From Escherichia coli (GTDB lineage Bacteria; Pseudomonadota; Gammaproteobacteria; Enterobacterales; Enterobacteriaceae), in the NCBI RefSeq assembly GCF_022846255.1, contig NZ_AP025682.1: 64,000 nt of DNA; one strand, 5' to 3'. Numbering within the stretch: position 1 is the stretch's first letter; each line of letters opens with the position of its first letter. The notes beneath the pieces are model-generated. The model saw only the letters and a program-made list of their open reading frames with translations. It did not search any database and was not told the DNA's origin. Made by a program: the position numbers and the translations under genes. Below are positions 23,306 to 23,390 of the stretch, one piece after another.

Positions 23306-23329
23306 TTTCAGGGTAGCATCTTTGTTGTA

Positions 23330-23359
23330 ATGACATTAGCGTTACATGTGCTGTATAAT
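23330..23359 (+). promoter_or_regulatory. sigma70-like promoter of the toxin-antitoxin operon (-35 ATGACA, 18-bp spacer, -10 TATAAT)
   Basis: Motifs read from sequence; GGAT Shine-Dalgarno follows before the antitoxin ATG at 23391. Confidence 0.55.
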
Positions 23360-23390
23360 TATCATCCATGCAAAGCCGAAGGATATATTT

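Follow-up and report, generated by a model that had tools for sequence, protein, structure and literature searches.

A conserved 21-bp imperfect palindrome overlapping the −35 hexamer as the candidate autoregulatory operator of a TacAT3-type toxin-antitoxin cassette in Escherichia coli

Introduction

Autoregulation of the Salmonella tacAT3 operon has reportedly been dissected by Grabe et al. 2024 (Nat Struct Mol Biol 31:1050). In the portion of a review that deals with that study, excess toxin is described as causing a hexamer-to-octamer transition by which the DNA is distorted and the operon derepressed (PMC11951105). TacAT3 itself is a functional Salmonella toxin-antitoxin module (PMC5959882).

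Regulation at the DNA level has been described for several other modules that pair a ribbon-helix-helix (RHH) antitoxin with a GNAT acetyltransferase toxin. The crystal structure of KacAT with DNA contains a T-A2-A2-T hexamer whose dyad lies on a pseudo-palindromic operator in the module's own promoter, and in which residues R8, D10 and R12 of the KacA β-strand read bases in the major groove; mutation of R8 or R12 abolishes binding, and excess toxin frees the DNA in vitro and derepresses transcription in vivo (PMC6698736). AtaRT forms a heterohexameric repressing complex on a palindromic operator (PMC8138530), repression by ItaRT requires the complex (PMC6125619), and the TacAT1 complex has two binding sites on its own promoter (PMC5449658). 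The general premise of an earlier note on the DNA studied here, that antitoxins of this family bind palindromic operators at their own promoters, is accordingly documented for KacAT (PMC6698736) and AtaRT (PMC8138530).

Genes, promoter and boundaries of the cassette

The stretch of E. coli DNA analysed here (64,000 nt, hereafter the window) carries a two-gene module of this kind, the principal features of which are as follows.

23277-23307, plus strand: intrinsic terminator of rne (stem-loop 23277-23300 and T run), forming the upstream edge of the intergenic region
23326-23346, no strand assigned: inferred TacA3-type operator, a 21-bp imperfect palindrome, TGTAATGACA-T-TAGCGTTACA (sequence reading and conservation in homologues)
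23330-23335, plus strand: −35 hexamer ATGACA (promoter scan), inside the left half of the putative operator
23354-23359, plus strand: −10 hexamer TATAAT (promoter scan), with a −10-like hexamer kept there in homologues
23378-23383, plus strand: Shine-Dalgarno sequence GAAGGA (read from the sequence), 7 nt before the ATG
23391-23684, plus strand: tacA3-like antitoxin gene, 97 aa, ribbon-helix-helix, DUF1778/TacA family (PF08681, E = 1.2e-26)
23681-24175, plus strand: tacT3-like GNAT acetyltransferase toxin gene, 164 aa (GNAT Pfam domains)

The earlier note had called an RHH antitoxin and its toxin downstream of the repeat, and the two genes bear this out: they encode a PF08681 TacA-family protein and a GNAT protein, both closest to the Salmonella enterica pair TacA3-TacT3 (PDB 7AK7). 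Seventy-nine of the 97 antitoxin residues (~81%) are identical in chain C of that entry (TacA3; E = 1.2e-45), the toxin matches chain A (TacT3) at E = 7.7e-76 (8e-76 when rounded), and the entry contains four antitoxin and two toxin chains, the A4T2 set. RefSeq labels the antitoxin gene as a DUF1778 or TacA-family antitoxin and its partner as a GNAT acetyltransferase. The toxin ATG overlaps the antitoxin stop codon (ATGA, 23681-23684), as in translationally coupled genes. Two other identifications of the module were rejected, ItaRT being found at another locus, EcHS_A0501 (PMC6125619), and AtaRT being a distant paralogue (AtaR, E = 6e-5).

An in-frame ATG at 23346, inside the putative operator, would extend the antitoxin reading frame to 112 aa, and long starts of this kind are used in some database entries (112-121 aa; P0002, P0005 and P0006). 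That translation really begins at 23391 is supported by the RefSeq annotation, by the fact that most homologues are 97 aa long, and by the Shine-Dalgarno sequence, which has a GGAGG or AGGA counterpart at the equivalent place in homologues.

A consensus scan matched ATGACA-18-TATAAT at 11 of the 12 sigma-70 consensus positions. This predicted promoter, a consensus match only, lies together with the repeat 45 nt upstream of the antitoxin ATG, in a 90-nt gap that is bounded by the rne terminator on one side and by the ATG at 23391 on the other. In the terminator scan, the rne stem comprised 10 pairs, 6 of them G-C, and was followed by TTTTATTT. E. coli genomes are all alike up to ~23310, and strains without the module part company after TTTTTTATTTCA; judged against a module-less strain, the cassette starts at ~23311, immediately behind the rne terminator and 15 nt ahead of the putative operator, so that promoter and repeat both belong to the cassette. 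The cassette measures ~0.9 kb (23311-24201, by comparison with loci L087 and L081) and replaces ~66 nt of module-less E. coli. The module sits between rne and flgL; of 5426 complete E. coli genomes, 685 carry it, in every case on the chromosome and as a single copy. Five sampled E. coli variants have SNPs at 23325, 23349, 23350 and 23369 and a one-G difference in the run 23311-23313, none of which falls in the 21-mer or the −10 hexamer.

The inverted repeat and its chance level

Between 23326 and 23346 the window reads TGTAATGACATTAGCGTTACA, in which TGTAA (23326-23330) and TTACA (23342-23346) flank an 11-nt spacer. The TGTAA-N11-TTACA inverted repeat on which the earlier note was based is therefore present, and the overlap claimed for it with the −35 region also holds at the level of a consensus match (ATGACA, 23330-23335, 11/12). 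The repeat alone is, however, not statistically unusual. The window has a single copy of the exact pattern where 0.05 would be expected, but this null was picked only once the pattern had been seen. Under a fair null, 64% of shuffles of the 80-nt segment 23311-23390 produce one or more inverted repeats with 5-bp arms and 0-15 nt between them. Two such repeats are observed in that segment, a number reached or exceeded in 36% of shuffles, and the window as a whole contains 283 21-mers in which at least 7 of 10 positions show symmetry. With the repeat itself at chance level, the case is carried by its context and by comparison with homologous modules.

Conservation across homologous modules

Twenty antitoxin homologues (72-96% identity) were aligned as the query for a search in which each bacterial species was represented by a single genome. 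It recovered 80 loci, 73 of them with usable upstream regions. The 21-bp element is present in 68 of these 73 modules, located in nearly all cases 54-67 nt before the start codon, and has the consensus (C/T)GTAATGACA-N-(T)G(A)C(A/G)NTAC(G/A). It extends over alpha-, beta- and gamma-proteobacteria and one myxobacterial metagenome-assembled genome (MAG): it was found in Xanthomonas, Sphingomonas, Rhizobiaceae, Mesorhizobium, Rhodocyclaceae, Hydrogenophilales and Methylobacter, and also in Marinobacter, Pseudomonas, Inquilinus and a Sandaracinaceae MAG. All of the enterobacterial upstream regions show CGTAATGACAT-N4-GTTACG before a TATAAT-like hexamer; many of these loci are close relatives that horizontal transfer has probably spread, and hence not independent. 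In the non-enterobacterial taxa that carry the element, the rest of the upstream sequence is unalignable.

The contrast between core and flanks was expressed as information content, computed on the 41 sequences left after thinning.

Operator positions 2-4: G T A, 1.95 bits
Operator positions 6-9: T G A C, 1.6-1.8 bits
Operator position 15: C, 1.95 bits
Operator positions 18-20: T A C, 1.25-1.8 bits
Flanks (ten columns left, two right): none conserved, ~0-0.2 bits

Alignment anchored on the motif inflates this contrast, a bias from which a k-mer test and a leave-out weight matrix are free. In an unbiased count over 41 non-enterobacterial upstream regions, the top-enriched 7-mers were all pieces of the motif, and GTAATGA was present in 22 of the 41 regions and in none of 194 control segments from the same loci. 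A weight matrix made from the thinned set of sites, without the window, gave 23326-23346 a score of 28.5 bits, the highest of 128,000 window positions; the reverse strand of the same site scored 14.0 bits and the best unrelated site in the window 12.9 bits. A motif search over the whole window returned, beyond the putative operator, only a chance-level match with two mismatches at 18302. The proposal in the earlier note that the repeat is a candidate operator is thus supported by its conservation at a fixed place in 68/73 modules whose flanks have drifted, with binding by the antitoxin expected from relatives.

The conservation extends to the strand of the antitoxin that would read the DNA. 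The β-strand LNLRI is invariant in the twenty aligned homologues, and the preceding residues R11 and E12 are nearly so; in motif-carrying loci generally, the strand (E/D)(T/S)LN(L/I)RIK is nearly invariant. The KacA contact residues R8, D10 and R12 align without gaps with S13, N15 and R17 of the window antitoxin, of which N15 and R17 are invariant among the twenty homologues. Two more distant homologues (47-51% identity), L078 from a Rhodocyclaceae MAG and L079 from a Rhizobium sp., have the β-strands AINLRIRD and VNLKVRED, and in these a perfect 17-bp palindrome, GATACACATTGTGTATC, replaces the GTAATGACA motif ~20-45 nt upstream of −10-like hexamers. This pairing of an altered β-strand with an altered palindrome, seen in two loci only, is suggestive.

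Anatomy and symmetry of the element

The earlier description of the element, as two 5-bp arms, located it correctly but understated it: the arms are part of a 21-bp imperfect palindrome in which 7 of 10 pairs are symmetric. Numbered 1-21 from 23326, with the dyad at T11 (T23336), the symmetric pairs in the window are T1-A21, G2-C20, T3-A19, A4-T18, A5-T17, G7-C15 and A10-T12, and the best copies, for example CGTAATGACATTGACATTACG (L037 and L068), are symmetric at 9/10 pairs. Nor do TGTAA and TTACA delimit what is conserved, as their outermost T/A is variable in homologues (C/G in 37 of 70 sequences, T/A in only 4) and the conserved core is instead GTA..TG / C..TAC. In the window this core comprises GTA at 23327-23329, TGAC at 23331-23334, C at 23340 and TAC at 23343-23345, its symmetric part being G2 T3 A4. 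T6 G7 mirrored by C15.. T18 A19 C20.

The half-sites can be written as GTAnTG and CAnTAC, with centres 13 bp apart. Arc, MetJ and CopG also bind through a two-stranded β-sheet, as dimers on tandem or inverted subsites spaced by roughly one turn of the helix. They differ from the present case in having no toxin partner and in the spacing of their subsites, as against the 13 bp between half-site centres in the window, where the two RHH dimers would presumably be bridged within the toxin-antitoxin hexamer.

The right half of the element is much more degenerate than the left. A8, C9 and A10 are highly conserved, in contrast to the mirror positions 12-14 with only 0.3-0.85 bits, and this one-sided conservation is attributed to the superposition of the −35 hexamer (positions 5-10) and the left half-site. 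In homologues the distance from motif to −10 varies, but the spacer from TGACA to a TAtaaT-like hexamer is held at 16-18 nt, which fits a −35 inside the motif.

In a set of 70 distinct sequences, symmetric pairs make up 76.7% of the total, a share that falls to 17-51% once the partner column is shifted by 1-3 positions. In the same 70 sequences, both the number of two-sided changes and the covariation score of the arms equalled those of shuffles. As there is no covariation beyond column composition, the symmetry rests on joint conservation rather than on compensatory change, and a copy such as L033 (CGTAGTG...CACTACG) is a mere anecdote given the negative covariation test.

Comparison with described operators

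The nearest counterpart of the element is found upstream of a module in S. enterica subsp. diarizonae (L017), which has CGTAATGACATCTGCGTTACG (L017:1434-1454), identical to the window at 17 of 21 positions and equally far from its −10 hexamer (TATACT) and its ATG. The window cassette differs from Salmonella tacAT3 in occupying another genomic site, rne-flgL, and its operator differs from the Salmonella type in the outermost pair, which is C/G there and T/A in the window, and in the central bases. In all likelihood, then, E. coli has here its own orthologue of the TacA3-type operator, one that is possibly already known through its Salmonella counterpart. It belongs to an ordinary, well-understood class of control element and is nothing new in kind.

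Klebsiella pneumoniae KacA-KacT (PDB 5ZGN) shares with the module an RHH DUF1778 antitoxin and a GNAT toxin, but KacA is a distant antitoxin relative (E = 2e-7) with the reading residues R8/D10/R12 where the window protein has S13/N15/R17. The KacA palindrome spans the transcription start whereas the window element spans the −35, and the 27-bp KacA operator is different in sequence. AtaR-AtaT of E. coli O157:H7 (PDB 6GTS) and ItaR-ItaT of E. coli HS are systems in which the antitoxin by itself is a weak binder or repression depends on the complex, and to this extent they resemble the behaviour proposed below; they represent other paralogous subfamilies, set apart here by protein and locus.

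Proposed mechanism and alternative explanations

The 21-bp element is very likely the autoregulatory operator of this TacAT3-type RHH/GNAT cassette. By homology with relatives for which binding is known (PMC6698736, PMC6125619, PMC5449658), the antitoxin or its complex with toxin would bind the site. Two antitoxin RHH dimers joined in a TacT-TacA2-TacA2-TacT hexamer would place their β-ribbons in two major grooves, one at GTAATG (23327-23332) and one at CGTTAC (23340-23345), half-sites symmetric about T23336, and if transcription starts 6-8 nt after the −10 hexamer the hexamer would cover about −41 to −20. Because the left half-site contains the −35, a bound complex is predicted to keep sigma-70 RNA polymerase off, region 4 of sigma-70 being excluded from the −35 and the polymerase thereby blocked. 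Excess free toxin would rearrange the complex and release the DNA, bringing antitoxin synthesis back by conditional cooperativity. As a counterweight, the operators of relatives can lie elsewhere or be double, given that the KacA site spans the transcription start and that TacAT1 has two sites.

The last point bears on a larger or double operator, in which full repression would also take a weaker site, close to the −10 or to the start of transcription. Such an arrangement, which is compatible with the main explanation, is a minor possibility: TacAT1 probes covering −81..−46 and −46..−6 each bind the complex (PMC5449658), the KacA palindrome spans the transcription start (PMC6698736), and enterobacterial loci also keep TATCCAGAG just downstream of the −10. 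Weight-matrix and half-site scans of 23290-23395 nevertheless gave no second match, the next local score being −1.0 bits, and the block downstream of the −10 is unconserved outside Enterobacterales. It is also conceivable, though improbable, that the conserved block is promoter alone, consisting of the −35 and adjacent sequence selected by RNA polymerase, with the antitoxin binding elsewhere or not at all. This would account for TGACA, the −35 itself, being the best-conserved run, for a left half far better conserved than the right, and for arms without covariation. It would leave the GTA upstream of the −35 and C15 with T18 A19 C20 in the spacer, which are as conserved as the −35 (1.25-1.95 bits) and lie opposite one another in mirror positions across the dyad, and it sits poorly with the distant homologues in which a changed β-strand accompanies another palindrome at the same place. 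We know of no base-specific sequence demand of this kind in the spacer of sigma-70 promoters.

The remaining readings dispense with the antitoxin altogether. The TyrR box has the consensus TGTAAA-N6-TTTACA and the CRP site TGTGA-N6-TCACA, and the TGTAA and TTACA arms bear a superficial resemblance to TyrR boxes. A TyrR-box-like or CRP-like site for a host regulator is nonetheless very improbable, in that the arms are 11 nt apart rather than 6 nt and so fit neither consensus, the element accompanies the cassette in hosts that are unrelated and in varied genomic settings, and this promoter holds the sole match in the 64-kb window. A functionless chance repeat would suit the shuffles (64% of those of 80 nt with a 5-bp inverted repeat) and the 283 window 21-mers with at least 7/10 symmetry, yet it is refuted by conservation at a fixed position over three proteobacterial classes and can be given hardly any credence. 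An inverted repeat could also act as nucleic-acid structure, either as a DNA cruciform or hairpin or as an RNA element. The predicted fold is weak (minimum free energy −2.2 kcal/mol, z-score −0.35 against shuffles), no Rfam match reached threshold, transcription is predicted to start downstream of the repeat, and its arms lack compensatory changes, so that the likelihood of this reading is negligible.

Implications of a probable operator fused to the promoter

If the element is the operator, the analysis supplies a concrete 21-bp operator and promoter for a TacAT3-type, persistence-associated cassette carried by ~1/8 of complete E. coli genomes, and a consensus that fuses operator with −35 across proteobacterial classes and beyond, usable for annotating the operators of the subfamily. 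Understanding of TacAT-type systems is unchanged by the finding.

A joint reading that goes further, and that we offer tentatively as doubtful, treats the site as a portable fused −35/operator unit with a built-in asymmetry and the capacity for cross-repression between modules. If true, the left half-site GTAATGACA would be strong, nearly invariant and locked to the −35, and the right half-site weak, with only C15 and TAC kept; thanks to this asymmetry, toxin in excess would be able to strip the hexamer from the DNA. With the element nearly identical in alpha-, beta- and gamma-proteobacteria, TacA3-type modules that share one cell could then also repress one another, and the Pectobacterium carotovorum modules L009 and L010 could serve as an example.

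These two paralogous modules lie ~4 kb apart on NZ_FQWI01000003.1. Their operators, CGTAATGAGATAAGCTTTACG and CGTAATGACATTAGCGTTACG, differ at 3 of 21 positions, and antitoxin residue 12 is V in one and E in the other, differences that could insulate the paralogues from each other.

Neighbouring sequences

The interval between the toxin gene and flgL (24202-26249) holds two insertion sequences, the genes of which, with the flagellar genes beyond them, are as follows.

24304-24762, minus strand: IS200-like Y1 transposase gene (PF01797)
24903-26249, minus strand: IS4-family transposase gene (PF13006 and PF01609)
26418-27371: flgL, with flgK next

A G+C-rich hairpin lies at 24204-24222, where the match of the window to module-carrying strains free of insertion sequences ends. 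Upstream of the putative operator, GGTTCGATTCC-like strings that resemble a tRNA T-arm occur at a distance of 10-25 nt in many enterobacterial copies (L017:1400-1425; L003-L031) and may be remnants of island attachment sites; the intact upstream tRNA gene that they suggested was not detected by ARAGORN.

Beside rne, E. coli HS-02 (L086; NZ_CP172818.1, 1117737-1117925) retains the first ~60 nt of the cassette, to the equivalent of ~23369. The 21-mer and the −10 hexamer are intact there and the antitoxin and toxin genes are absent, leaving an orphan promoter/operator scar.
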